Positions 2,573 through 14,849 of a stretch of DNA of 14,852 nt are shown in pieces (positions within the stretch are counted from its first letter, which is position 1; every line of letters starts with the position of its first letter). A program made the translations under genes and the position numbers. The DNA lies in the NCBI GenBank assembly GCA_027064305.1, contig JAMOPY010000029.1, positions 1-14,852 of the forward strand, given 5' to 3'. The DNA comes from Methanobacteriota archaeon. Its GTDB lineage: Archaea; JAADCQ01; Methanopyri; Methanopyrales; Methanopyraceae. Under the pieces are notes generated by a model. It was given only the letters and a program-made list of their open reading frames with translations. It did no database searches and was not told the DNA's origin.

Positions 2573-3969
2573 GGGAGCTGGACGTGGACGCGGCGCCGGA
2601 CGAGCTGTACGCGGCCCTGCGCACCCTCTCCTCGCACACGTTCCTGTTCGAGTCGGCGGAGGTGGGGGAGAGCGGCCGGTACTCCTTCGTCGGCTTCGCT
2701 CCCGCCCTGCGGATCGCGTGCTCGGGCGACCGGGTGCACGTGGACGTCTGGGACCCCGAGTACGACCTGGTGGACCGGGATCGGAAGCGGTCGGACGAGG
2801 ACTACTTTCAGCTGATGCGCCGCCTGTTCTCCGGGCTCCCGGAGGTGGAGGGCTCGGGGTTCGTGGGCGGGCTGGTGGGGTACATATCGTACGACGTGGT
2901 GGAGGACTGGCTGGACGTGCGGCCGACGACGGTGCCGGACCCTCGGTGGCCCGAGTTCGAGCTGTGCCTGTACGACTCCGTCGTCCGGTACGATCACGTT
3001 GAGGATCGCGTGGAGCTGGTCTCCGTGCACCCGGACGGGTACGAGGTCGAGTGGCGGGCGGAGGCGATCGAGGAGTGCGCCCGGGACGCGACGGGGTCGG
3101 CGGCCCCCCGGGTGTACCGGGCCGGTCCCGTGCGCCGGGACGTGGGGCGGGAGGAGTTCGAGGAGATGGTCGAGCGCGCCCGGGATTACATCGTCTCGGG
3201 CGACATCTTCCAGGTCGTGCTCTCCCGGCGCGTGGAGGTGCGGGCCGCGGCCGACCCGCTCGAGGTGTACCGGAGGCTGCGGAAGATCAACCCGTCACCG
3301 TACATGTACTGCCTGGAGTTCGGCGAGCGCCGGATCGTGGGCTCCAGCCCCGAGACGCTGGTCAAGCTGGAGGGCGATCGGATCGTCACGAAGCCCATCG
3401 CGGGCACCCGACCCCGGGGCGAGACGCCGGAGGAGGACGAGCGGTTGGCCCGGGAGATGCTAGAGGACGAGAAGGAGCGGGCCGAGCACGCCATGCTCGT
3501 GGACCTGGCCCGGAACGACGTGGGCAAGGTCTCGCGCCCGGGCACCGTTCGCGTGACCCGGCTCATGGAGGTGGAGCGGTACAGCCACGTGCAGCACATC
3601 GTGTCCGAGGTGGAGGGGGAGCGGCGCCCCGGGGTCACCCCGTGGGACGTGCTCCGGGCGACCTTCCCGGCGGGCACGGTCTCGGGCGCGCCGAAGGTGC
3701 GGGCGATGGAGATCATCGACGAGCTCGAGGTGTACAAGCGGGGCCCGTACGCGGGTGGGGTGGGGTACGTCAGCTGGACGGGCGACCTGGACTTCGCGAT
3801 CTCCATCCGCACGATCTTCTCCACGGGTCGGCGCTGGTTCACGCAGGCCGGCGCGGGGATCGTGTACGACTCCGTGCCCGAGCGGGAGTGGCGCGAGACG
3901 GAGGACAAGATGCGGGCGATGGTGGGGGCCATCCTTGAGGAGGCTGGTGCTGATCAACAACAAGGATAG
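2557..3969 (+). CDS. trpE: Anthranilate synthase component I
   Basis: True start is probably the ATG at 2557 (MRLTVRE..., GGGGAG RBS) within ORF 2041..3969. Motifs FLFES, GGLVGYISYD, GDIFQVVLS, NPSPYM, GSSPE, PIAGTRPRG, EHAMLVDLARND, FPAGTVSGAPK, QAGAGIV. PIAGT rather than PIKGT argues for TrpE over PabB. Confidence 0.92.
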   Translation: MRLTVRELDVDAAPDELYAALRTLSSHTFLFESAEVGESGRYSFVGFAPALRIACSGDRVHVDVWDPEYDLVDRDRKRSDEDYFQLMRRLFSGLPEVEGSGFVGGLVGYISYDVVEDWLDVRPTTVPDPRWPEFELCLYDSVVRYDHVEDRVELVSVHPDGYEVEWRAEAIEECARDATGSAAPRVYRAGPVRRDVGREEFEEMVERARDYIVSGDIFQVVLSRRVEVRAAADPLEVYRRLRKINPSPYMYCLEFGERRIVGSSPETLVKLEGDRIVTKPIAGTRPRGETPEEDERLAREMLEDEKERAEHAMLVDLARNDVGKVSRPGTVRVTRLMEVERYSHVQHIVSEVEGERRPGVTPWDVLRATFPAGTVSGAPKVRAMEIIDELEVYKRGPYAGGVGYVSWTGDLDFAISIRTIFSTGRRWFTQAGAGIVYDSVPEREWRETEDKMRAMVGAILEEAGADQQQG

Positions 3970-4516
3970 CTTCGTGTACAACCTGTACCACCTCTTCGCG
4001 CCCCTGGAGGGCGTGGAGCTGCGCGTCGTCTCCAACCGGGCGCCCCTCTCCCGGCTCGAGCGGTTGGACCCGGACGGGCTCGTGATCAGCCCCGGTCCCG
4101 GGCACCCGGAGCGGGACGCGGGCGTGTCGATCCCCGCCATCCGCCGCTTCGCGGGGGAGATCCCCATCCTCGGGGTCTGCCTGGGCCACCAGTGCATCGG
4201 GGTCGCGTACGGGGCCCGGGTCCGGCGCGCCCGCCGCATCGTGCACGGGAAGACCTCGCCGATCGAGCACACGGGCGAGGGCGTGCTCTCCGGCCTGGAG
4301 AACCCGTTCGAGGCCATGCGGTACCACTCGCTGGTCCTGGAGGAGTCCAGCCTCCCGGACGAGCTCGAGGCCTGCGCGTGGGCCGGGGACGACGGGGAGC
4401 TGATGGCCATCCGGCACGTCGATCACGACGTGTTCGGCCTGCAGTTTCACCCTGAAAGCTTCATGACGGAAGGCGGGGACGTCATCGCCCGGAACTTCCT
4501 GGAGCTGGTGGGGTGA
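3935..4516 (+). CDS. trpG: Anthranilate synthase component II (class I glutamine amidotransferase)
   Basis: INNKDSFVYNL, ISPGPGHP, LGVCLGHQ (catalytic Cys), RYHSL, LQFHPES. Start probably TTG 3935 (alternative GTG 3947), overlapping the end of trpE. Confidence 0.92.
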   Translation: MRRLVLINNKDSFVYNLYHLFAPLEGVELRVVSNRAPLSRLERLDPDGLVISPGPGHPERDAGVSIPAIRRFAGEIPILGVCLGHQCIGVAYGARVRRARRIVHGKTSPIEHTGEGVLSGLENPFEAMRYHSLVLEESSLPDELEACAWAGDDGELMAIRHVDHDVFGLQFHPESFMTEGGDVIARNFLELVG

Positions 4517-6830: not shown

Positions 6831-7220
6831 GTGAACCTCCTCCCGATCCTGGCGCAACCGACCGTCCTCGTCGCCCTCTCCGGGTGCGTCACGGCCGTCA
6901 TCGTCGCCGCGATCGCGGCCCGGGTTTACTCCCGGAAGCTGCGCGTCCGGGAGCTCGAGCTGAAGGTGGAGCGGGAGAAGGTGGAGCTGGTCCGGGCCGA
7001 CCTGGAGCGTCGCCGGCTGCTGGATTTACTCTTCTACCTGCCCGAGGACACCCGGCTCCTCAACCGCGTGAGCGCGATCCGCTCCCTCCTCACGAGCCTC
7101 GCGGAAAAGTATATGGACGTCGAAACGCGCATGACGCGGCTGGAGCTTGAGGCCGAGCTCAAGCGGTTGGAGGAGCTCTCCAAGAGCCTTGAAAAGCTGG
7201 AGGAGGAAGGTGGTGAGTGA
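6831..7220 (+). CDS. Hypothetical protein, N-terminal transmembrane helix + coiled coil
   Basis: Hydrophobic N-terminus (VLVALSGCVTAVIVAAIAA) followed by E/L/R-rich heptads. Sits exactly between surE and the next gene with typical codon usage. Confidence 0.75.
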   Translation: MNLLPILAQPTVLVALSGCVTAVIVAAIAARVYSRKLRVRELELKVEREKVELVRADLERRRLLDLLFYLPEDTRLLNRVSAIRSLLTSLAEKYMDVETRMTRLELEAELKRLEELSKSLEKLEEEGGE

Positions 7221-7609
7221 TGACCATCGCCGAGTTCATCGCGGTCGGCGTGATCACGCTCGCCGTGATCATCGTCGTGGCCCTGATCGTGCGAAGCCGC
7301 ACGAGCACCGAGTCCGGGGAGTCCTCCACCTTGCTGGGTAACAAGCTGTCCGGGAAGCTGTCCCTGTCCAGCTCCGACCTCATCTCCAAGCGCGTGGACG
7401 AGATGATCGAGCGGCGCGTGGAGGAGCTCATCGACAGCTGGGGACTGGCCACGACCGAGGACCTGGAGCAGGTGGAGCGCCGGGTGGACGCGCTCGACCG
7501 ACGGCTGGGGGAGCTGGAGCAGCGGTTCAACGAGTTCAGGAACGACATCCGAAGGAAGATCGAGCGGCTGGAGGCTCGGCTCCGAGAGCTCTCCGAGTCC
7601 GAGGAGTGA
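7217..7609 (+). CDS. Hypothetical protein, N-terminal transmembrane helix + coiled coil
   Basis: TM segment FIAVGVITLAVIIVVALIV, Ser-rich linker, long heptad region (LATTEDLEQVERRVDALDRRL...). Start GTG 7217 or ATG 7220 after a GGTGGTGA RBS. Overlaps both neighbours. Confidence 0.78.
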   Translation: MMTIAEFIAVGVITLAVIIVVALIVRSRTSTESGESSTLLGNKLSGKLSLSSSDLISKRVDEMIERRVEELIDSWGLATTEDLEQVERRVDALDRRLGELEQRFNEFRNDIRRKIERLEARLRELSESEE

Positions 7610-8358
7610 CGACCCGGGGTCCGACCTTGGAGCGGCCCATCGCCTCCTCCGTCCTCAGGAAAGGTTACGAGGTGCTTAACGACCGGGCCCGGAGCGACGT
7701 CATCGTCGTCGGGGCCGGCCCGGCCGGTCTCACCTGCGCCTACGAGCTGGCCCGGAACGACGTGAAGGTGACCGTCATCGAGCGGCAGCTGTACGTCGGC
7801 GGCGGGATGACCGGCGGCGGGATGTTCCTGCCCGCGGGCGTCGTGATGGAGGAGGACGCCGAGCTCCTGGAGGAGCTGGGGGTCGAGCTGGAACCCGCCG
7901 AGGAGGGCCTGCTCGCGTTCAACCCCGTGGAGGCGGCGATCAAGCTCGCCCACGCGGCCGTGGAGGCGGGCGCCGTCATCCTCGTGGGGCTGGAGGTGGA
8001 GGACGTGATCGAGCGTCAGGGCCGCGTCGAGGGCGTCGTCGTCAACTGGACGGCCGCCAAGCGCGCCGGCATGCACGTGGACCCGCTGCCGATGGAGGCC
8101 AAGTTCACCGTGGACGCCACGGGCCACGAGGCCTCGGTCTGCCGGTGCGCGGGCGTGGAGGTGAAGGGAGAGGGACCGATGTGGGCGGAGCGCGGCGAGG
8201 AGCTCGTGGAGAAGCACACCCGAGAGGTCAAGCCGGGCCTCTTCGTCGCCGGCATGGCCGCCTCCGCGGTGCGCGGCGCCTACCGGATGGGACCCATCTT
8301 CGGCGGCATGCTCCGCTCCGGCAGGAAGGCGGCCCGGGAGATCCTGGAGCGCCTCTAA
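7606..8358 (+). CDS. thi4: Sulfide-dependent adenosine diphosphate thiazole synthase (Thi4, non-Cys type)
   Basis: DVIVVGAGPAGL, GGGMTGGG, VVVNWT, MHVDPL (His in place of the suicide Cys), DATGHEA, PGLFVAGM, RMGPIFGGMLRSGRKAA. Confidence 0.93.
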   Translation: MTTRGPTLERPIASSVLRKGYEVLNDRARSDVIVVGAGPAGLTCAYELARNDVKVTVIERQLYVGGGMTGGGMFLPAGVVMEEDAELLEELGVELEPAEEGLLAFNPVEAAIKLAHAAVEAGAVILVGLEVEDVIERQGRVEGVVVNWTAAKRAGMHVDPLPMEAKFTVDATGHEASVCRCAGVEVKGEGPMWAERGEELVEKHTREVKPGLFVAGMAASAVRGAYRMGPIFGGMLRSGRKAAREILERL

Positions 8359-9017
8359 CGCCCTCCCAGGAGCTCCAACGCCTCCCTCACCTCGCGAACC
8401 GTCATCTGCCCCGGGGCCGCCGCGCCCCGGACCGCGGCGTACGTGGCGTACCCGCCCACGAGCAGGCTCACCACCCGCGTGTACCGGGCCCGCTCGCCCA
8501 TCGCGAAGCCGATCGTGGGCGCGTCGGCGGTCTCCACCATCTCCAGCACCCGCAGGGCCTCCCCGTGATCCCGCGCCGTGGGGACCACCTTGGCCACGTC
8601 CCCCAGCTCCGCGCACCGGTCCCGCAGCTCGAACAGCTCCTTCTTCTCCGGAGTACCCTCGAAGTCGTGGTGCGACACGATCGTGCGGCACGCGGGCCGG
8701 ATCACGTCCTCCTCGGCCACGTCCAGCTCCACGTCCACGAAGTCGGCCTCCTCCGAGACCCGCTCCAGGATCTCCAACCGGCGCTCCTCGTCGCCCTCGA
8801 ACCGCCCGCCCTCCTCCGCCCGGCGCAGCGTGGCGATCACGCGCTCGTACCGCGAGCACTCCCGAACGGCCCTCAGGGCCGTCCTCAGGTCCAGGTTCTC
8901 CAGGTAGTCCAGCCGCACCTCCAGCGCGTCCGCGCCCTGCTCCACGGCCTCGACGGCCAGCTCGACCATGTCCTCCACGGTGCGCCCGGTCAGCGTGGCG
9001 ATGATGAGGCCGGGCAA
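8355..9017 (-). CDS. aroD: 3-dehydroquinate dehydratase type I
   Basis: ADALEVRLDYL, IATLRRAEEGG, VDVEL, VSHHDFEGTP, DVAKVV (Schiff-base Lys), FAMGE...TR, APGQ. Confidence 0.93.
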   Translation of the reverse strand: MPGLIIATLTGRTVEDMVELAVEAVEQGADALEVRLDYLENLDLRTALRAVRECSRYERVIATLRRAEEGGRFEGDEERRLEILERVSEEADFVDVELDVAEEDVIRPACRTIVSHHDFEGTPEKKELFELRDRCAELGDVAKVVPTARDHGEALRVLEMVETADAPTIGFAMGERARYTRVVSLLVGGYATYAAVRGAAAPGQMTVREVREALELLGGR

Positions 9018-9020
9018 GGT

Positions 9021-9464
9021 CTACTCCTCCAGCGCCTCCTTGATGCGATCCAGGATGATCTCGGCGATGCGCCGATCCGCCCCGATCGGCTCCGTGTAGA
9101 CGATCTCCGCGTCCACGTCCACGGGCTCGTACTCGCGGTGATGATCGTGGTGATGATGGTGCCCGTGATCGTGATCGTGCCCGTGATCCTCCTCCCAGTC
9201 CGGCTCCAGGCCCAGCATCCTCGGGATGTCCCGCTTGGTGTGCACCCCGTGGGCCAGGAACACCGGCACGACCACGATCCGATCCGCCCCCGACTCGGCC
9301 GCCCGCTTCACGGCCTCCTGGATGGACGGCTCCGAGAACTCCATGAACCCGACCTCCACGGCCTCGAAGTCGCCCATCTCCTCCACGTACTCGGCGAGCT
9401 TCTCCACCACCTCGCGGTTGTACGGGAGGCGGCTGCCATGCCCCACGAGCACGACGGCTACCAT
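9021..9464 (-). CDS. cbiX: Short class II chelatase CbiX-S (sirohydrochlorin Co/Ni chelatase, CfbA-like)
   Basis: LVGHGSRLP, VGFMEFSEP, VVPVFLAHGVHTKRDIP, internal His-rich loop, EPIGAD. Confidence 0.93.
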   Translation of the reverse strand: MVAVVLVGHGSRLPYNREVVEKLAEYVEEMGDFEAVEVGFMEFSEPSIQEAVKRAAESGADRIVVVPVFLAHGVHTKRDIPRMLGLEPDWEEDHGHDHDHGHHHHHDHHREYEPVDVDAEIVYTEPIGADRRIAEIILDRIKEALEE

Positions 9465-9467
9465 GTA

Positions 9468-10202
9468 TCACAACTCCCCCAGTAGCGTGTTAACGACCAC
9501 CAGCACGGCCAGGATGCCCCTATATTCGTCTATCTCCCGCAGCTCCTCGGACAGCTCCAGCTGCAGCCCCTGCACCCGCTTACCGTCGCAGTGATACTCC
9601 AGGATGTCCCCGCCGCAGAACTCCTGCTCGAACCCCACGTCGAACCCGCACTCCTCCAACCGCTCCACCACCTTCGCGACGAGCTCACCCCTCGCGGCCT
9701 CGCCGCCCAGCGCCCCCACGTCCACCTCCGGCCGGATGGGGTCGGACTCCATCCCGTGCAGGTCCACGATGAACCGGATCCCGTGCTCCTCGATCAGCTC
9801 CGAGATCCGGCGCCGGAAGGGCGTGTCCCGCGTCCACTCCCGGTTGTAATCGGCCGGTCGATCCTCCCCGGGCAGGCGCGACCGCCGGCTGACCGTCGCG
9901 ATGAGCGCGTGACAGCCGGCGATCCGCGCGACCCACCACGCGATCTCCCCGGTGAACACGTCCGCCCCGGGCCCCTGCGCGTGCGGGGCCGTGAGCAGGA
10001 TCGGGCGCGCCCCGCGGACCTCCACGTACCCGCGCAGCCGCACCTCCGAGCCCACCCGCTCGCCGTCGACCGACAGCCCCGGCACGCCCCTCAGGGCGCG
10101 CCGGAGCCGCTCCGGAGGGACGTCCAGCCGCTCGGACAGCTCCCGAACGTCCGAGATCCCCTCCCGGAGAATCAGCTCCACGGCCCGGCTCCTCAGGGGC
10201 AA
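9468..10202 (-). CDS. N-terminal HTH-like segment fused to an N-formylglutamate amidohydrolase-like Zn hydrolase domain
   Basis: N-terminus DVRELSERLDVPPERLRRAL is HTH-like. Then LLTAPHA, ADYNRE, IVDLHGM, VDVG and LQLELSEELR resemble FGase/Zn-carboxypeptidase-fold motifs. Confidence 0.7.
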   Translation of the reverse strand: MPLRSRAVELILREGISDVRELSERLDVPPERLRRALRGVPGLSVDGERVGSEVRLRGYVEVRGARPILLTAPHAQGPGADVFTGEIAWWVARIAGCHALIATVSRRSRLPGEDRPADYNREWTRDTPFRRRISELIEEHGIRFIVDLHGMESDPIRPEVDVGALGGEAARGELVAKVVERLEECGFDVGFEQEFCGGDILEYHCDGKRVQGLQLELSEELREIDEYRGILAVLVVVNTLLGEL

Positions 10203-10204
10203 GC

Positions 10205-10930
10205 TCAGAGCCCCAGGATCCTCTTCGCGTTCTCCTCCAGGATCAGATCGTGGTCCACGTCGGCCGCCCGCACCACCTCCAGCTGCGCGGCCGGGCTACC
10301 GTACGGGGAGTCCGAGCCGAAGAGGATGCGCTCCTCCCCCACCCGCTCCGCCGCGCGCTCGATCACCTCCGGATCCTTCACCAGGGAGACCTCCAGGTAC
10401 GCGTTCTCGTGCTCCTCCGCGACCCGGATCGCCGCGTCGTACCCCTGCTCCTTACCCATGTGCGCCATGATGATGGGCGTGTCCGGCACCTCCTCCGCCA
10501 GCCGACCCACCCGGACGGGATCCGAGAAGGGCTCACCCCGGGCCGTGTGAACGATCACCGGCACGCTCAGGTCCGCCGCTTTCTCCACCACCCGAACCGC
10601 CTCCGGGTCGTCCGGGTAGAAGGACTGACTGCGCGGGTGCAGCTTGACCCCCCGCAGCCCCAGCTCGCGCACGCACCGCTCCACCTCCTCCACCGCCGCC
10701 TCCTCGCAGTTCGGGTCCACCCGGCAGAACCCGATCAGCTCCTCGTGCTCCGAGCACGCCTGCGCGATCCGATCGTTCGCCTTCGAGAAGCACACGCCCG
10801 GATCGACGTCGTTGAAGGGGAACACGACCGCCCGGTCGATCCCGTTGACCCGCATCTTCGCGAGCAGCATCTCCACGGTCTGGACCGTGCCGTCCACGTC
10901 CTCCCCTAGGTGATTGTGAACGTCGATCAC
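10205..10930 (-). CDS. Metal-dependent TIM-barrel hydrolase (amidohydrolase_2 family)
   Basis: Only the C-terminal 241 aa of ORF 10205..12229 looks real, starting at GTG 10930 (GTGA overlap with the upstream stop). Motifs IDVHNHLG, GVKLHP, IVHTA, MAHMG, ILFGSDSPY. Confidence 0.9.
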   Translation of the reverse strand: MIDVHNHLGEDVDGTVQTVEMLLAKMRVNGIDRAVVFPFNDVDPGVCFSKANDRIAQACSEHEELIGFCRVDPNCEEAAVEEVERCVRELGLRGVKLHPRSQSFYPDDPEAVRVVEKAADLSVPVIVHTARGEPFSDPVRVGRLAEEVPDTPIIMAHMGKEQGYDAAIRVAEEHENAYLEVSLVKDPEVIERAAERVGEERILFGSDSPYGSPAAQLEVVRAADVDHDLILEENAKRILGL

Positions 10931-12405
10931 CACCGGCTCACGATCCCCCTGCTCACGTGCTCGAGCTGGACGATCTGATCCCCCTCTTTGAGCGGTACCC
11001 TCACGCCCCGGGGCAGCCGGCCCAGCACGCCCTCCCGCTCGGCCACGACCACGGGCTGATCGACGCCCACCGTGATCCGGGCCCGCACGATGTCCTTGAC
11101 GAACCCCAGCCGGTCCCGCCGGTACTCGTAGTCCGCGACCGGGGTCAGGCGCCCCACCAGCCGGGTCCCCTCCGGGATCCTGACCCGCTTCCCGTTGATC
11201 TCCAGGACGCGGTCCGAGCCGAGCCGCACGACGACCTCCTTCCCCTCGTACCGCGCCAGCTCCTCGAACTTCCGCTCCACCTTCAGGGACGGCCGCTCCT
11301 CGAGCTCGGTCTTCCCGTTGCGCAGCTGGGAGCGGAAGGAGAGCCCGAACTCGTCGACGATCTCCTCCACGAGCCCGATCAGCTCCAGGAGCGCCTCCCG
11401 GGCCTCCACGATCCCGTCCTCTCGGACGAACTCCGCCTCGATCCCGGACCGGATCGCCCGCTCCCGGTTCTCCATGTGGTGCTCGTCCGGATGGCTCATC
11501 CGACCCTCCTTCTCGTACAGGTAGAACCCGTGCACGCCCAACCCCGCGATGAGGAGGATCACGTCGTGCAGGTAGTCCAGGGACTTCTGGTTGTCGATCG
11601 CCCGCACCTCCACCCGGTTCCGCTCCGGGCTCTCGTTCTCGTCCCCCGTCACGTTCGAGGCCGGCCCGCGCGGGGTGATGTCCACCAACCGCTTGCCGTT
11701 CGGGTGCGCCACCACCCGCTCCTCGAACTCCGTGTCCTTGCGCAGCCGGAGCTTGTACCGGAGTCGACCGTAGTACTGCGTCTGGGTCAGGGTGGGGCGC
11801 TTGGGGGGCCGCTCCAGCCGCGCGTGCCGGTTGGGCTTGAGCACCCGGCTCTTCAGCAGCCGACAGCTGGCCGCGAGGTTCCGCCCCCCGCAGCAGTAGG
11901 GCGTGTTGGCCGTGGCCGCGATGAGCGTGGGCAGGTGGTACCACAGGTAGTTGTACACCGCGCAGACCTGGGACGGCGTCATGTACGGCTTGTCCTTGAA
12001 CCGGATGGCCAGGTTCACGTGCGTCCCGTTGATCGGCAGGGGATCGCTCTCCACCGGGTGCATGCTCTCCAGCAGGACCAGGAGTCTCATCCGGCTGGCC
12101 GCCTTCCGGATCAGCTCCCGACCCACCTTGCAGGCCTCCAGCGCCTCCTCCGGCGGCACGGGCTGGGTGATGTACTCGATCTGCGCCGGGTTCGGCTCCG
12201 GGTCCAGGCCCAGCACGTACTCCCAGCACGTGTCGAGCAGCGAGTGGTCCGACTTCAGCAGCTCCGCCGCCTCCATGATCACGTCGTCGGCGGCCCGCAC
12301 GAGGGAACCGCGCCGGCTGATGAGGAACAGCTCCTCCTCGATCCCCACGCGCACCTCGATCCGCTCCAGGAACCGGCGCAGCCGCCTCCGGCGGATGAGC
12401 GGCAC
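10927..12405 (-). CDS. Glutamate-cysteine ligase family 2 (YbdK-like) carboxylate-amine ligase with an extra C-terminal domain
   Basis: VGIEEELFLI (ExE metal motif), AQIEYIT, SMHP, NGTHVNL, LIAATANTPY, ASCR, DITPR, RVEVRAIDNQ and ENRERAIRSG match the GCS2/YbdK motif order. Confidence 0.82.
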   Translation of the reverse strand: MPLIRRRRLRRFLERIEVRVGIEEELFLISRRGSLVRAADDVIMEAAELLKSDHSLLDTCWEYVLGLDPEPNPAQIEYITQPVPPEEALEACKVGRELIRKAASRMRLLVLLESMHPVESDPLPINGTHVNLAIRFKDKPYMTPSQVCAVYNYLWYHLPTLIAATANTPYCCGGRNLAASCRLLKSRVLKPNRHARLERPPKRPTLTQTQYYGRLRYKLRLRKDTEFEERVVAHPNGKRLVDITPRGPASNVTGDENESPERNRVEVRAIDNQKSLDYLHDVILLIAGLGVHGFYLYEKEGRMSHPDEHHMENRERAIRSGIEAEFVREDGIVEAREALLELIGLVEEIVDEFGLSFRSQLRNGKTELEERPSLKVERKFEELARYEGKEVVVRLGSDRVLEINGKRVRIPEGTRLVGRLTPVADYEYRRDRLGFVKDIVRARITVGVDQPVVVAEREGVLGRLPRGVRVPLKEGDQIVQLEHVSRGIVSRW

Positions 12406-12411
12406 GCGGTC

Positions 12412-13680
12412 CTACCCCCGGAGCAGCTCGTCCAGGGTCCGCTGCACCACCCTGCCGCCGCCCGTCCGCGGTCCCTCCTCCCCGCCCTCCTCACCGTCTT
12501 CCTCCTCGCCCACGAGGATCTCCCCGTACCGACCGCCCCCGCCCGGCCGGATCCGAACCGACCCCTCCCGGAAGGCCCGCAGGAGCCTCGCGACCCGCTC
12601 GTCCACCTCCGCCACCTCCTCCGGCGGCGCCTCGACCAGCACGTCGATCTCGCTCCCGAACCGCCGGACGAGGGCGTTCCACACGGCGTTCACCTTCTTC
12701 GCCGTGACCGTCGAGAGGCCCAGCGCCTTCGCGATCAGCTCCGACAGCGGGACGATCCGCAGGTACGGGGGCCGATGCTTCGGGTGCCTCGGCTCGTCCA
12801 GGTCCGCCAGCTCGAGCACCCGGTCCCGCACGCCCTTCTTGATCCGTCCACCGCACTCGGGGCACCGCCAGTTCAGCCGCTCCGCCTCCTCCAGCGTGAA
12901 CTGGCGCTTGCACCGGGCGCACGCCGTCCGGTTGTACTTGCCCAGCTCCGGGACCAGGCCCACGTTCAGGACCACGCGACCGCCCGGCTTCCGCCGGATC
13001 GCCGCCTTGATCGCGTCGTAGGAGGGCTCCTCCAGCTCCAGCCGGACGAACTCGCGCCCGAGCCGGTGCGGGTAGGGGGAGTGCGCGTCGGAGCAGGTGA
13101 GGAACGTGTACCGGTGCAGCTCCGAGATCCGGTCCGCGTAGTCGGAGTCCGCGGAGAGGCCCAGCTCCACGAAGTCGACCCGGTCCACGGCGTCGCCGTA
13201 GCACTCGGACAGGGAGTCGTACTCCTTGAACACGCTGGTCCAGGGGACGAACGCGTGCGCCGGGCCGACCAGGCACTCCCGCTCCTTCAGCAGGTCCACC
13301 AGCTCGGCCCCGGAGAGGTCGACCCTCGGCCGACCCTCCTCCTCGATGTCCGGGGAATGAGGCCTCAGCTCCTCGTACAGGTCCTCGGCCGCGTCCAGCG
13401 AGGGCAGGATCACGAGGTGGTGCACCCGGTCCCGATCCTCGATCTCGACCGTGGGGACGAACCGGACGCCCGTGCGCGGGTCCCGGAGCAGCCCGTACTC
13501 GTCCCGCTCCAGCTCGCGCCGCACGTGCCGCCGCCACCGGGGATGGAGGATGTCCCCCGTGCCGACGAGGTCCAGCCCCTTCCTCCTCGCCCCGCGGGCG
13601 AGCTCCCGGATCACCATCCGAGGGGAGGTGCCCCCGGAGTACTTGGAGTGCAGGTGGAGGTCGGCGTCGTAGGTGGGCAC
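12412..13680 (-). CDS. endoQ: Endonuclease Q (PHP domain + Zn ribbon + C-terminal helical domain; TIGR00375-like)
   Basis: DADLHLHSKYS, KGLDLVGTGD, RVHHLV, GPAHAFVPW, ELGLSAD, SDAHSP..HRLGRE, GKYNRTACARC...CPECGG.IKKGV, FGSEIDVL, PGGGGRYG. Confidence 0.9.
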   Translation of the reverse strand: MPTYDADLHLHSKYSGGTSPRMVIRELARGARRKGLDLVGTGDILHPRWRRHVRRELERDEYGLLRDPRTGVRFVPTVEIEDRDRVHHLVILPSLDAAEDLYEELRPHSPDIEEEGRPRVDLSGAELVDLLKERECLVGPAHAFVPWTSVFKEYDSLSECYGDAVDRVDFVELGLSADSDYADRISELHRYTFLTCSDAHSPYPHRLGREFVRLELEEPSYDAIKAAIRRKPGGRVVLNVGLVPELGKYNRTACARCKRQFTLEEAERLNWRCPECGGRIKKGVRDRVLELADLDEPRHPKHRPPYLRIVPLSELIAKALGLSTVTAKKVNAVWNALVRRFGSEIDVLVEAPPEEVAEVDERVARLLRAFREGSVRIRPGGGGRYGEILVGEEEDGEEGGEEGPRTGGGRVVQRTLDELLRG

Positions 13681-13701: not shown

Positions 13702-14196
13702 TTAGACCGGGAGCAGCTCGCGCAGTTTCTCCTCCGTCTCCGGGACGATCTCGAAGGCGATCCAGCCGGCGAGCACGATGATCAGGAGGCCGATGAGCTG
13801 GCCCACGATGTCGTGGGCCACCCGGAACCCCACGTGCCAGACGCTCATCATGTAGAACATGAACGCGAGCCGGAGCACGTTCCCCGCGGTCATGATCGCG
13901 GTCGAGACGGCGATGGCCAGGAGCTTGCGGGTCAGCGAGGGGCCCGGGGTCGCGAGGATGAGACCGACGAAGAGGGCGATCGCGGGCCACACGACGCAGC
14001 CCTTCACGATCACGGCGTTGATCCCGCCCACCTGGAACGTGTACCCCGTCTTCGGGAGGTGCACGCCCAGCGCGTTGAGCAGCGAGTGCACCCAGTGGGC
14101 GGTGCGGTACTGCAGGGGCTCCGTGTCGATCCCGGAGTACACGAACAGGGAGACGGCGACGGCGGCGGTCAGGTACCGCCAGTCCACCCGTCTCAC
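13702..14196 (-). CDS. Archaeosortase/exosortase-family membrane transpeptidase
   Basis: Small multi-TM protein with the family's Cys-Arg-His triad in order: IVKGC, GNVLR, AHDIVG. Also LILATP....RKL. GTGA overlap with the upstream gene. Confidence 0.8.
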   Translation of the reverse strand: MRRVDWRYLTAAVAVSLFVYSGIDTEPLQYRTAHWVHSLLNALGVHLPKTGYTFQVGGINAVIVKGCVVWPAIALFVGLILATPGPSLTRKLLAIAVSTAIMTAGNVLRLAFMFYMMSVWHVGFRVAHDIVGQLIGLLIIVLAGWIAFEIVPETEEKLRELLPV

Positions 14197-14849
14197 CCCG
14201 CGGGCCGGAGGTACCGGGCGATCTCGAACAGCCCGTGGGCGCCGAACGTCTGGATCGTCCAGGCGGCGGCGAACATCATCAGCAGGTCGTCCCCCTTGTG
14301 GTACCGCTCGACCCCCGTCACGTTGGACGCGAGGTCCGCGGCCGTGACCACCGCCCCCATGACGAGCCCGCCCCGCCAGGATCCGGTGATGAGCAGGCCC
14401 AGCAGGAGCGCCGCCAGGAACTCGAAGATCGTGCCGATCGGGCTGATGCCCTCCTCCACATGCCGGACCCGGAGTCCCTCGAGCGAGATCACCGGGTTCA
14501 CGGACCTGGGGACGAACTGGGCGAGCCCGCCCGCGCCGTCGACCCCCTTGGAGACGAGGAACGCGAGGCAGGCGTTCGTCAGCCCGAGGACGGGGGCGAG
14601 CCCGAACAGCATCAGGGCGGCCAGGAGGATCGAGTTCCAGGGGTCGTACCGCTCCCTACGCTCGTAGAGCTTCGGGGCCAGCGGGGGCCGGATGAACGCC
14701 GCGAAAACGGTGAGCCCGAAGATGGTGGCGGGGAGGACGCCCGACATCGCCTGGCCGAGCAGGACCGCCGCGGCCGCCCCTCCCACCGCCGAGTGCAGGG
14801 TCGAGGCGACCGGATCGTCGGAGAGCTTGCGTCGGAGCGCCTCCGCCAC
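14193..14849 (-). CDS. Hypothetical multi-pass membrane protein (start may lie beyond the window edge)
   Basis: Several hydrophobic helices and typical codon usage. Its stop overlaps the archaeosortase start. The frame is open to the window end. Confidence 0.7.
   Translation of the reverse strand: MAEALRRKLSDDPVASTLHSAVGGAAAAVLLGQAMSGVLPATIFGLTVFAAFIRPPLAPKLYERRERYDPWNSILLAALMLFGLAPVLGLTNACLAFLVSKGVDGAGGLAQFVPRSVNPVISLEGLRVRHVEEGISPIGTIFEFLAALLLGLLITGSWRGGLVMGAVVTAADLASNVTGVERYHKGDDLLMMFAAAWTIQTFGAHGLFEIARYLRPAG

Follow-up and report, generated by a model that had tools for sequence, protein, structure and literature searches.

A candidate ATP-dependent carboxylate-amine ligase and an FGase/PghP-like metal (presumably zinc) amidohydrolase are encoded close together in Methanopyrus, with one gene between them, and next to each other in no fewer than six further archaeal lineages, among them Asgard, Korarchaeota-type and Thermoproteota-type archaea. 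Judging from sequence, we consider it somewhat more probable than an even chance that the two enzymes synthesize and cleave a small gamma-glutamyl-type amide, and that the Amidohydro_2 and Endonuclease Q genes beside it in Methanopyrus are operon bystanders. The pairing across distant archaea points to a glutamate-type compound that is both made and broken down.

The window comes from a heat-loving methanogen. In the window (the whole 14,852-nt stretch of DNA analyzed), three minus-strand ORFs encode the ligase (492 aa, 12405..10927, start codon GTG), an Amidohydro_2 TIM-barrel metalloenzyme (241 aa, 10930..10205, GTG) and the FGase-like hydrolase (244 aa, 10202..9468, TTG). The ligase stop and the Amidohydro_2 start share GTGA at 10930-10927, and 2 bases (10204-10203) separate the Amidohydro_2 stop from the FGase-like start, so the ORF coordinates and the sequence confirm the tight coupling reported in the preliminary description. 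This overlap and gap carry no functional information, because plainly unrelated genes of the same operon and strand are equally tightly spaced. An Endonuclease Q orthologue with a PHP domain (12412..13680; phmmer E 1.7e-125 to PfuEndoQ 5zb8, TIGR00375 E 1.3e-112) lies 6 nt from the ligase; the sirohydrochlorin nickelochelatase CfbA (9021..9464; NCBIfam NF033198 E 1.1e-45, CbiX PF01903 E 9.4e-33) lies 3 nt from the FGase-like gene, and the type I 3-dehydroquinate dehydratase AroD (8355..9017; PF01487 E 2.3e-49, TIGR01093 E 9.5e-45) lies 3 nt from CfbA. These three genes are operon neighbors outside the module, passengers typical of the Methanopyrus genome, and they bear out the earlier caution that operons here join unrelated genes. 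Endonuclease Q adjoins the ligase in Methanopyrus only.

The ligase has no Pfam match at E ≤ 0.01, PF04107 included, and its NCBIfam carboxylate-amine-ligase matches are weak (best E 4.3e-11, 42 bits against a cut-off of 371). Its residues 17-357 align with a 24-sequence YbdK-like alignment at an hhalign probability of 100% (E 1.2e-40). In VIA-align comparisons, the AF2 model of the ligase (pLDDT 84) shows the fold of the YbdK/GCS2 ligases (PF04107, including GCS2-type GshA), with Z 28.0 to Salmonella 1tt4 and 27.6 to E. coli YbdK 1r8g (rmsd 3.1-3.4 A over 302-303 residues), followed by plant GCL 2gwc (23.7), Dop/PafA (18.1-19.9) and GS (about 18). The ligase and the YbdK/GCS2 ligases have in common the motifs GxExE, E...IExxT, G-x-H, ANSP...S-x-R and VEVRxxDxQ. 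Invariant residues of the archaeal family include G21, E23-E25, E70, Q75, E77, H129, N131, R182, R264, E266, R268 and D271, and 9 of the 11 residues invariant in the YbdK set are retained (G, E, E, E, H, R, E, R, D). The other two are exchanged for residues that are again invariant, namely Asn (N131) for the second His of G-x-H-x-H and Arg (R264) for the Thr preceding VEVR, so that metal binding or chemistry may not be the same. Together, the model and the alignments indicate that gene 1 encodes a divergent ATP-dependent carboxylate-amine ligase of the YbdK/GCS2 fold, most of whose motifs are intact, in agreement with the GS/GCS2-fold assignment made before; the fold is nearer to YbdK and plant GCL than to Dop/PafA.

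Compared with YbdK/GCS2 ligases, the archaeal ligase is about 120 residues longer and has two additional parts, an insertion conserved in the family at about residues 186-262 and a beta-rich C-terminal region (residues 372-492, about 120-130 aa; 10930..11292, minus strand). The latter lies beyond the hhalign match, is family-specific without a counterpart in YbdK-type profiles, and is conserved across an alignment of 42 family members, in which the segment positions G47 and D105 never vary. Modelled alone with AF2 (pLDDT 82), it gives weak Sm/SH3-like small-barrel matches, with Z ≤ 6.7, under the noise level of the tool. The family is small and archaeal, its members having about 480 aa: a search of 1.84 billion entries recovered 26 representatives at E ≤ 1e-30, and the next hits were generic GCS2 proteins at E about 1e-15.

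The FGase-like hydrolase has its core at about residues 56-244. It matches the N-formylglutamate amidohydrolase family PF05013 above the cut-off in its C-terminal half (E 2.9e-10, 41.1 bits against 28.9, residues 128-221 only), and the phage poly-gamma-glutamate hydrolase family PghP (PF05908) weakly and under the cut-off (E 4.8e-4); its similarity to the solved FGase (2q7s) is marginal (E 0.089). The invariant residues of the family are H74, D81, S105, R106, D118, N120, R130, D147, H149, G197, D199, Q214 and E216, and the conserved H...D...H + E pattern and D-x-N-R motif are presumably compatible with a carboxylate-binding metal-dependent amidase. The N-terminal 55 residues are probably a winged HTH specific to Methanopyrus: the best match is HTH_Tnp_1 with E 0.2, and the several wHTH matches of an orthologue in a second Methanopyrus genome all stay under the cut-offs. 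Thus, in the earlier label of an HTH-FGase-like hydrolase, the FGase part stands, whereas the HTH part has sub-threshold matches only. Also different from N-formylglutamate amidohydrolase, the window shows no histidine-utilization context, and FGase-like proteins carry lineage-specific extras: besides the probable wHTH, there are a helical extension of ~120 aa at the N-terminus, a histone fold and an MTH865-like domain. GGACT-FGase-like fusion proteins are present as well (P0052-54).

A survey of 185,579 species genomes gave 69 ligase loci, the majority of whose carriers are Asgard archaea. An FGase-like gene adjoins the ligase at 12 of them: three in Methanopyrus, two each in Njord and Methanodesulfokora, one each in Baldr, Heimdall, Geothermarchaeum and a Nitrososphaerota MAG, and one on a short contig. 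Among 301 sampled Asgard genomes, the ligase occurs in 44 and a strong FGase-like match (E ≤ 1e-49) in 16, and all 16 FGase-like genes share a contig with the ligase gene and adjoin it, 10 of them co-directional with it and 6 divergent. The FGase core in the window shares 38-43% identity with the Promethearchaeota forms and 27-32% with the clade-A forms; this pattern matches the place of the window ligase in the ligase tree, and the gene trees agree coarsely. In a quick IQ-TREE phylogeny with midpoint root, FGase-partnered ligases make up four of the five main branches and stand on either side of the root, and ligases partnered by a gamma-glutamyl cyclotransferase-family protein (GGACT) or a GATase are restricted to one crown clade of 54 rows, the largest of the ligase clades. 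The FGase/PghP-like enzyme appears to be the older ligase partner. In one genome of 98% completeness (G022), an FGase-like match (E 1.3e-24) is present and the ligase was undetected, so the hydrolase does not strictly require the ligase.

It is also evident that the partner has been replaced. An FGase-like, GGACT and/or GATase1-like partner accompanies the ligase at 67 of the 69 loci, and the two partnerless loci are both cut by contig ends. At 55 loci, GGACT (PF06094, E 1.5e-15) and/or GATase (PF00117, E 5.3e-13) lies directly downstream in place of the FGase-like gene, with GGACT between ligase and GATase in 34, GATase alone in 11 and GGACT alone in 10; no FGase-like match was found in the five GGACT/GATase-partnered genomes searched. 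The functional link of the ligase to an amide hydrolase that was proposed before is thus supported and extends across phyla, and more broadly to enzymes cleaving gamma-glutamyl bonds. Furthermore, an ATP-grasp gene (YheCD 2.3e-15, RimK 1.1e-7, GSH-S_ATP 1.1e-6 to 8e-5, TTL 8.1e-6) accompanies the ligase at 6 of the 12 FGase-partnered loci. Of the 10 co-directional Asgard-sample loci retrieved (L095-L104, partly duplicates of the 12), 9 have it as well. A search for the clade-A ATP-grasp homolog in Methanopyrus found none, and a two-ligase peptide pathway is therefore incomplete in the Methanopyrus genome.

We propose that the ligase would activate a carboxylate at the expense of ATP and couple it to an amine. 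By analogy with YbdK/GshA, the carboxylate would most likely be the gamma-carboxylate of glutamate, and the amine would most likely be an amino acid's alpha-amino group or a similar amine. The FGase/PghP-like metallo-amidase would cleave the ligase product or a later derivative, recognizing a free carboxylate beside the scissile amide. In other archaea, a GGCT-family enzyme and/or a GATase1-type thiol amidase would serve the ligase family instead, and in one clade the RimK/YheCD/GshB-like ATP-grasp ligase that joins the pair could add a further residue. The ligase may be a plain gamma-Glu-X peptide ligase. The tails of F420, methanofuran and methanopterin and pseudomurein, named as possible substrates in the preliminary description, are unlikely because most ligase carriers are Asgard archaea, which are not known to be methanogens or to contain pseudomurein.

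By analogy of gene content, the archaeal module looks to be a variant related to the bacterial neighborhoods of ligase and GGCT/GATase predicted by Iyer et al. (2008), for example Clostridium perfringens CJD_1902, in which no Pup-like ORF was seen and for which synthesis of a glutathione-like peptide metabolite was predicted. Their gene logic is that of the Asgard crown clade (ligase plus GGACT and/or GATase1), whereas the present family is archaeal, has the extra C-terminal domain and the FGase/PghP-like partner, and in some lineages this partner carries DNA-binding-type fusions. The accessible literature holds no biochemical characterization of either the archaeal module or these bacterial systems. 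Clade A also resembles the glutathione pathway (GshA plus the ATP-grasp GshB) in combining a GCS2-fold ligase with an ATP-grasp protein matching GSH-S_ATP, and the GGACT-family enzyme added in other ligase clades recalls the gamma-glutamyl cycle (GGCT). However, the ATP-grasp protein scores higher to YheCD and RimK than to GshB and is absent from Methanopyrus. To our knowledge, an FGase-like hydrolase is not part of the glutathione/gamma-glutamyl cycle.

The Amidohydro_2 gene could be given a role if the three Methanopyrus genes formed a pathway in gene order, in which an amine is glutamylated as a protecting or handle group, modified by the Amidohydro_2 protein, whose relatives include decarboxylases and hydrolases, and released by FGase-like glutamyl removal (Puu-/butirosin-type logic). 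The gene order with start/stop coupling is kept in all six Methanopyrus genomes (ligase identity 55-100%). The Amidohydro_2 protein matches PF04909 over its full length (E 2.7e-37), with a DVHNH motif read directly at its N-terminus, and its nearest solved sequence relatives are decarboxylases, the nearest being LigW 5-carboxyvanillate decarboxylase (E 4.3e-11). The description of two metal-dependent C-N hydrolases hence suits the FGase-like protein, which belongs to an amide hydrolase family, but not clearly this one. Moreover, a 43% identical Amidohydro_2 homolog in another archaeon again adjoins a GS-fold enzyme, lying between P-II and glutamine synthetase genes. Against such a pathway, Amidohydro_2 is beside the ligase at 9 of 75 loci (some duplicates), every one in Methanopyrus, and its homologs (39-43% identical) occur in four other archaeal genomes in which no ligase was found. 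The six trio genomes are one genus and therefore a single evolutionary observation, and the spacing is as tight for Endonuclease Q, CfbA and AroD. We thus regard the three-step pathway as unlikely; the trio put forward as a unit is confined to Methanopyrus, the conserved unit is the pair, and the Amidohydro_2 gene is probably a lineage-specific neighbor outside it.

Glutamine-dependent amidation, in which the ligase would use ammonia (supplied by GATase1 where present) to make a carboxamide and the FGase-like enzyme would be a deamidase, is improbable. In sequence, the GATase1 partner comes nearest to bona fide subunits of amidotransferases (GMP synthase subunit A 2.1e-8, TrpG 1.8e-5) and matches gamma-glutamyl hydrolase weakly (3.6e-3), and it could be an ammonia donor instead of an amidase; glutamine synthetases are also clear structural relatives of the ligase. 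However, the ligase fold is nearer to YbdK/GCL than to GS, and no GATase adjoins the ligase in Methanopyrus or clade A. GGACT enzymes act on gamma-glutamyl amides and are not known to act on carboxamides, yet GGACT is what separates ligase and GATase in the 34 loci with both, and the loci with GATase alone or GGACT alone also fit poorly.

Less probable again is the modification of a protein, possibly a chromatin protein. Here the ligase would either place an amino acid on a carboxylate of a protein or link glutamate to one of its amines, elongation of this modification would fall to the ATP-grasp enzyme, and a carboxypeptidase-like FGase enzyme, tethered to DNA by the histone fold or wHTH, would erase it. 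Some Promethearchaeota FGase-like proteins bear a C-terminal histone fold (P0048: FGase 2.5e-12, CBFD_NFYB_HMF 6.1e-10), and the genes for these proteins are arranged head-to-head with that of the ligase (L106-L110). This fusion, together with the probable wHTH of the Methanopyrus forms, the TTL and RimK matches of the ATP-grasp partner and the small beta-barrel-like C-terminal domain of the ligase, would suit such a role, and the simple metabolic reading leaves the DNA-binding-type fusions in several lineages unaccounted for. The fold and the write/erase logic of ligase with hydrolase are also common to PafA/Dop pupylation. Nevertheless, PafA/Dop are more distant from the ligase than the small-molecule ligases YbdK and GCL, and the archaeal eraser differs in fold and is no paralogue of the ligase. 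Around the ligase loci, a search for conserved small ORFs of 25-69 aa that stand free of other genes, Pup-like ones included, found none, the eight largest clusters of such ORFs being shadow frames within larger genes. Most family members are paired with GGACT and GATase1, families that act on small molecules; the histone fusion is limited to one small clade (4 tree rows), and divergent genes with a DNA-binding domain would equally fit an enzyme doubling as autoregulator.

Finally, that Methanopyrus holds no functional unit, the three genes being unrelated passengers brought together by accident in an operon that joins Endonuclease Q, CfbA and AroD at 2-6 nt gaps, is very improbable and already contradicted for the ligase and FGase-like pair by its recurrence in other archaeal lineages, the 16 adjoining Asgard genes and the coarse agreement of the gene trees. 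For the Amidohydro_2 gene, accidental adjacency is likely.

The three genes lie in tandem on the minus strand and encode a ligase of 492 aa (12405..10927, GTG start), an Amidohydro_2 protein of 241 aa (10930..10205, GTG start) and an FGase-like hydrolase of 244 aa (10202..9468, TTG start). The ORF coordinates reproduce exactly the overlap of stop and start (GTGA) and the gap of 2 nt reported in the preliminary description, and its caution that operons of this lineage often join unrelated genes is apt. The trio is embedded in a longer minus-strand gene string, in which unrelated members are separated by 3-6 nt or overlap: the Endonuclease Q gene (13680..12412) ends 6 nt upstream of the ligase, and the hydrolase gene is directly followed by CfbA, the F430 nickelochelatase (9464..9021), and then by AroD (9017..8355). 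Because unrelated genes are equally close-packed in this genome (Methanopyrus genus, 89% complete; ~70% G+C in the window), the tight spacing is uninformative on shared function. The window comprises a complete contig, C29, of 14,852 bases. The PHP-domain gene was considered as a member of the system and rejected, since it encodes the Endonuclease Q orthologue (phmmer E = 1.7e-125 to P. furiosus EndoQ, PDB 5zb8; TIGR00375), which acts in DNA repair and has no relation to the module. The two minus-strand genes farther upstream, for a short archaeosortase-like (exosortase/archaeosortase-family) protein of 164 aa (14196..13702) and a multi-pass membrane protein of 218 aa without family match (14849..14193), overlap by 4 nt, and the CfbA protein carries a long His/Asp-rich insertion, with a run of H and D near positions 93-110.

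The first gene is predicted, from sequence profiles and a structural model, to encode a carboxylate-amine ligase. Its product matches no Pfam family at E ≤ 0.01 and does not reach the gathering threshold of PF04107, which ligases of other lineages pass (55.9 bits at locus L061 and 30.0 bits at locus L016; cut-off 21), and its NCBIfam matches to carboxylate-amine ligases are weak (best E = 4.3e-11, far under the cut-offs). When aligned with a 24-sequence YbdK-like alignment in hhalign, it scored a probability of 100% (E = 1.2e-40) over 291 columns, query residues 17-357. An AlphaFold2 model computed with a 24-sequence family alignment as input (pLDDT 84) is closest in VIA-align to the YbdK structures 1tt4_A (Z = 28.0, rmsd 3.1 Å, 302 aligned) and 1r8g_B (Z = 27.6), followed by plant GCL 2gwc (23.7), Dop (19.0-19.9), E. 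coli GshA (~19), PafA (18.1) and glutamine synthetases (~18); Foldseek also gives 1tt4 (E = 5.6e-12) and 1r8g (E = 2.2e-11) as best matches. The modelled fold is of the GS/GCL type, closest to YbdK. The GS/GCS2 fold proposed earlier from the sequence is borne out, and the catalytic motifs then described as intact-looking are retained in part: nine of the 11 residues invariant in the YbdK set are also invariant in the ligase family (G21, E23, E25, E70, H129, R182, E266, R268 and D271 in window numbering), and two are replaced, the second His of G-x-H-x-H (H132 of the YbdK set) by an invariant Asn (N131) and the Thr before VEVR (T231) by an invariant Arg (R264). Catalytic and metal-binding roles of the individual residues are presumed. 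Compared with the single-domain YbdK type of ~370 aa, the ligase has residues 358-492 beyond the profile match; this region is conserved across the family and reaches pLDDT 82 when modelled alone. An Sm/LSm or SH3 small barrel was considered for it and not assigned, as the Z scores of 4.3-6.7 fall below the noise of the tool (~8).

The ligase belongs to a small, well-separated family: when 1.84 billion representative proteins were searched with its profile, 26 of them, fragments included, matched at E ≤ 1e-30, and after a gap the next matches were generic GCS2 proteins at E of about 1e-15. The named relatives are from Methanopyrus (55-99% identity), Asgard archaea (35-41%), and a Bathyarchaeota MAG and Methanodesulfokora (33%), and the ligase was found in six of 41 genomes related to that of the window, all six being Methanopyrus. 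The family is sharply delimited and almost confined to Asgard archaea, Methanopyrus and a handful of thermophilic lineages.

The order Endonuclease Q, ligase, Amidohydro_2 and FGase-like hydrolase is kept in all six Methanopyrus genomes; as these belong to one genus, the synteny counts as one observation. We scanned one genome per species across 185,579 species and obtained 69 ligase loci; those derived from MAGs include near-duplicates and related genomes, so that counts are not independent events. An FGase-like gene adjoins the ligase in 12 loci (three in Methanopyrus, two each in Njordarchaeota and Methanodesulfokora, one each in Baldrarchaeota, Heimdallarchaeota, Geothermarchaeum and a Nitrososphaerota MAG, and one on a short contig). 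In 55 others the position after the ligase is taken instead by genes of the GGACT family (PF06094, E = 1.5e-15), of GATase1 (PF00117, E = 5.3e-13) or of both, with the two together in 34, GATase alone in 11 and GGACT alone in 10. A partner from an amide-cleaving family adjoins the ligase in 67 of the 69 loci, and the remaining two are cut by contig ends. In a profile search of all ORFs at the 69 loci, neither Amidohydro_2 nor Endonuclease Q was found next to the ligase outside Methanopyrus. The conserved unit is the ligase with an amide-cleaving partner, and not the trio on which the preliminary description had been built.

Among 301 evenly drawn Asgard genomes, the ligase (E ≤ 1e-20) was detected in 44 and some FGase-like match (E ≤ 0.001) in 25; the strong FGase-like matches (E ≤ 1e-49), 16 in number, all come from ligase-positive genomes and adjoin the ligase, 10 being co-directional and upstream and six divergent. 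No FGase-like gene was found in five Asgard genomes with a GGACT/GATase-type locus. For 77 distinct ligases, a quick maximum-likelihood tree (IQ-TREE; midpoint and hence arbitrary root; long-branch warnings for the ligases L069, L099 and L062) separates 12 co-directional FGase-partnered ligases (clade A) from a second group comprising five Methanopyrus ligases, two of Heimdall type with a divergent FGase gene, four of Promethearchaeota with a divergent FGase-histone gene, and an Asgard crown clade of 54 rows with GGACT/GATase partners. If this crown clade does not contain the true root, pairing with FGase came first and was replaced once by GGACT/GATase1. The FGase core of the window is 38-43% identical to the Promethearchaeota forms and 27-32% to the clade-A forms, in agreement with the position of its ligase in the tree.

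The hydrolase itself passes the PF05013 cut-off (41.1 vs 28.9 bits, E = 2.9e-10), residues 128-221 aligning with profile positions 113-217 of 219, and matches PghP below threshold. Common to 13 FGase-like homologues are H74, D81, S105-R106, D118-x-N120, R130, D147-x-H149, G197-x-D199 and Q214-x-E216, of which H74, D81, H149, E216 and D118-x-N120(-R121) vary little or not at all. The pattern would fit a metal-dependent, carboxylate-recognising amidase, and these least variable residues may map to the FGase/PghP active site. In a PDB sequence search with the FGase-like profile, the FGase structure 2q7s was matched weakly (E = 0.089), and no hut gene context is seen among the window neighbours, which are the ligase, Amidohydro_2, CfbA, AroD and Endonuclease Q. 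Prediction of a complex between ligase and hydrolase scored 0.00 against a mark of 0.32, which speaks neither for nor against binding.

Because the partners belong to families (FGase/PghP-like, GGACT and GATase1) whose known members, as we understand them, cleave gamma-glutamyl or N-acyl-amino-acid amides, and because YbdK and GCL come closest to the ligase, the most economical mechanism is one that forms a gamma-glutamyl-type amide. The ligase would use ATP to make such an amide from a small amine or an amino acid, and the partner enzyme would hydrolyse it or break it by cyclo-elimination; the product may be lengthened in clade A through a second ligation, by the ATP-grasp enzyme. We consider it somewhat probable that the ligase and its partner form, and then cleave, a small gamma-glutamyl-type amide. 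The adjacency pattern would then predict a metabolite or, less likely, a modification that is new for these organisms, with a gamma-glutamyl peptide or a gamma-glutamylated amine as candidates. To our knowledge, hardly any work has addressed low-molecular-weight thiols or gamma-glutamyl compounds in Asgard archaea or Methanopyrus, and the pairing is directly testable with two soluble enzymes. Cofactor tails and pseudomurein precursors, suggested as substrates at first, were discarded because most carriers are Asgard archaea. Several observations count against strict coupling or a simple reading: a ligase-negative genome with the hydrolase, a GATase1 closer to amidotransferases, the lack of the clade-A ATP-grasp in Methanopyrus, and Amidohydro_2 in genomes in which the search found no ligase.

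Known pathways offer partial parallels. The GshA + GshB pathway has a second, ATP-grasp ligase, and such a gene is present in six of the 12 FGase-partnered loci (among L007-L075; Pfam YheCD 2.3e-15, RimK, GSH-S_ATP and TTL). It had no match in a PDB sequence search, and a profile search of the window's own genome gave no homologue. The Puu-type pathway joins a GS-like ligase to a GATase1/C26 hydrolase; a GATase neighbour occurs in 45 of the 69 loci, all in other lineages, and is absent beside the ligase in the window. In bacterial neighbourhoods of ligase and GGCT/GATase genes, of which the Asgard crown clade is the archaeal analogue, glutathione-like peptide synthesis was predicted over protein tagging (Iyer et al. 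2008). Our literature search, outside which the amidoligase survey of Iyer et al. (2009) lies, found neither the FGase-like partner, nor the ligase C-terminal domain, nor the DNA-binding-type fusions.

A three-step pathway in which Amidohydro_2 also acts would account for the gene order of Methanopyrus, and is unlikely. The protein is a clear family member (PF04909, E = 2.7e-37, 129.5 bits vs a cut-off of 26.4, residues 2-241 on profile positions 1-289) with an N-terminal HxH metal motif in a sequence starting VIDVHNH. Among solved structures, decarboxylases such as LigW (E = 4.3e-11) come closest to it in sequence, so the label of metal-dependent C-N hydrolase given to it earlier is not established. 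Four further archaeal genomes, none of which yielded a ligase, contain homologues of 39-43% identity. One of these homologues, 43% identical (L083, contig C14 of genome G029), lies between the genes of P-II (GlnK) and glutamine synthetase, i.e. beside a GS-fold enzyme, downstream of an ammonium-transporter-like ORF; the Amidohydro_2 homologues at L084 and L086 (genomes G035 and G012) have 428 aa, with an extra C-terminal half.

Glutamine-dependent amidation, with GATase1 supplying the ligase, draws on the sequence of that partner, which is closer to GuaA/TrpG-type subunits (2.1e-8) than to gamma-glutamyl hydrolase (3.6e-3). We regard this explanation as quite improbable. The sole GATase in the window is the partner of a chorismate enzyme (3755-4516). 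The only GGACT-family gene of the window genome is on contig C11, unlinked to the ligase, beside a gene that presumably encodes threonine synthase.

Some forms of the hydrolase carry additional domains. Methanopyrus forms carry a probable winged HTH, which in the window protein would be the N-terminal 55 residues, judging from profile matches: residues 1-60 match HTH_Tnp_1 best (E = 0.2), and the orthologue at L004 matches PF0610-like_N (2.9e-4), HTH_24 (3.1e-3), TrmB, MarR and TFIIE, all below cut-offs; an ESM Atlas search with the N-terminal 58 residues gave no usable match. In Promethearchaeota, the hydrolase P0048 joins the FGase domain (2.5e-12) to a C-terminal histone fold (CBFD_NFYB_HMF, 6.1e-10), and the histone-fused genes (L106-L110; P0048-P0050) are head-to-head with the ligase gene. 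Clade-A hydrolases have an N-terminal extension of ~120 aa without Pfam match, a Heimdall form has a sub-threshold MTH865-like tail, and separate GGACT-FGase-like fusion proteins exist (P0052-54). The recurrent fusion to DNA-binding-type domains is unusual and suggests either an enzyme doubling as regulator of its own locus or chromatin-tethered chemistry. In the main text of the archaeal and Asgard histone papers searched we found no mention of an FGase/PF05013 amidohydrolase.

These fusions would favor a protein or chromatin modification system, which we hold to be very unlikely in general. In a specific version, slightly less probable again, DNA-associated proteins would bear a reversible amino-acid (glutamyl-type) modification, written by the ligase and erased by the FGase-like enzyme, with the eraser held on chromatin by the histone fold (Promethearchaeota) or the winged HTH (Methanopyrus) and a TTL/RimK-like ATP-grasp as elongase in other lineages. 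If true, the archaea most closely related to eukaryotes would have their own equivalent of the eukaryotic TTLL/CCP glutamylation. Tagging of the PafA/Dop type was rejected as a first choice on account of the lower Z scores and the lack of a Pup-like ORF: no conserved Pup-like gene was found near the ligase, the window gaps being just 2-6 nt, and the region within 2.5 kb of the ligase at the 69 loci contains 1,795 ORFs of 25-69 aa, whose eight largest clusters all fall inside larger conserved genes.

Pure coincidence of the gene arrangement is extremely unlikely beside the adjacency in Asgard archaea. The ligase-negative genome with the hydrolase is G022 (98% complete); its FGase-like gene (E = 1.3e-24; L093, contig C6) directly adjoins a UPF0047 (YjbQ-like) gene, as do those of L107-L110, and UPF0047 may be a second recurrent partner of this hydrolase. 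The histone-fused genes of L106-L110 have a UPF0047 gene as neighbour; in L107 at least, the gene of a Ras/Arf-like small GTPase is another. A ~440-aa paralogue at L115 (2964-4289, plus strand), with a C-terminal FGase domain (E = 2.8e-16) preceded by a GGACT-like 'VYGTL' motif, adjoins a MarR/TrmB-like regulator gene; similar frames are present in the genomes G066, G096, G123, G145 and G150, and the paralogue occurs in the same genomes as the cluster of ATP-grasp, FGase and ligase. At L016 (3070-7847) and about 25-30 other Asgard crown-clade loci, the ligase is immediately preceded on its own strand by three genes, two for HGD-D (2-hydroxyacyl-CoA dehydratase-like) proteins and one for a BcrAD/BadFG activator ATPase. 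On the plus strand of the window, two small overlapping genes (6831-7220 and 7217-7609) encode proteins with a hydrophobic N-terminal segment and, after it, a charged coiled-coil-like tail; the second has a weak phasin match (E = 3.3e-5, below cut-off).
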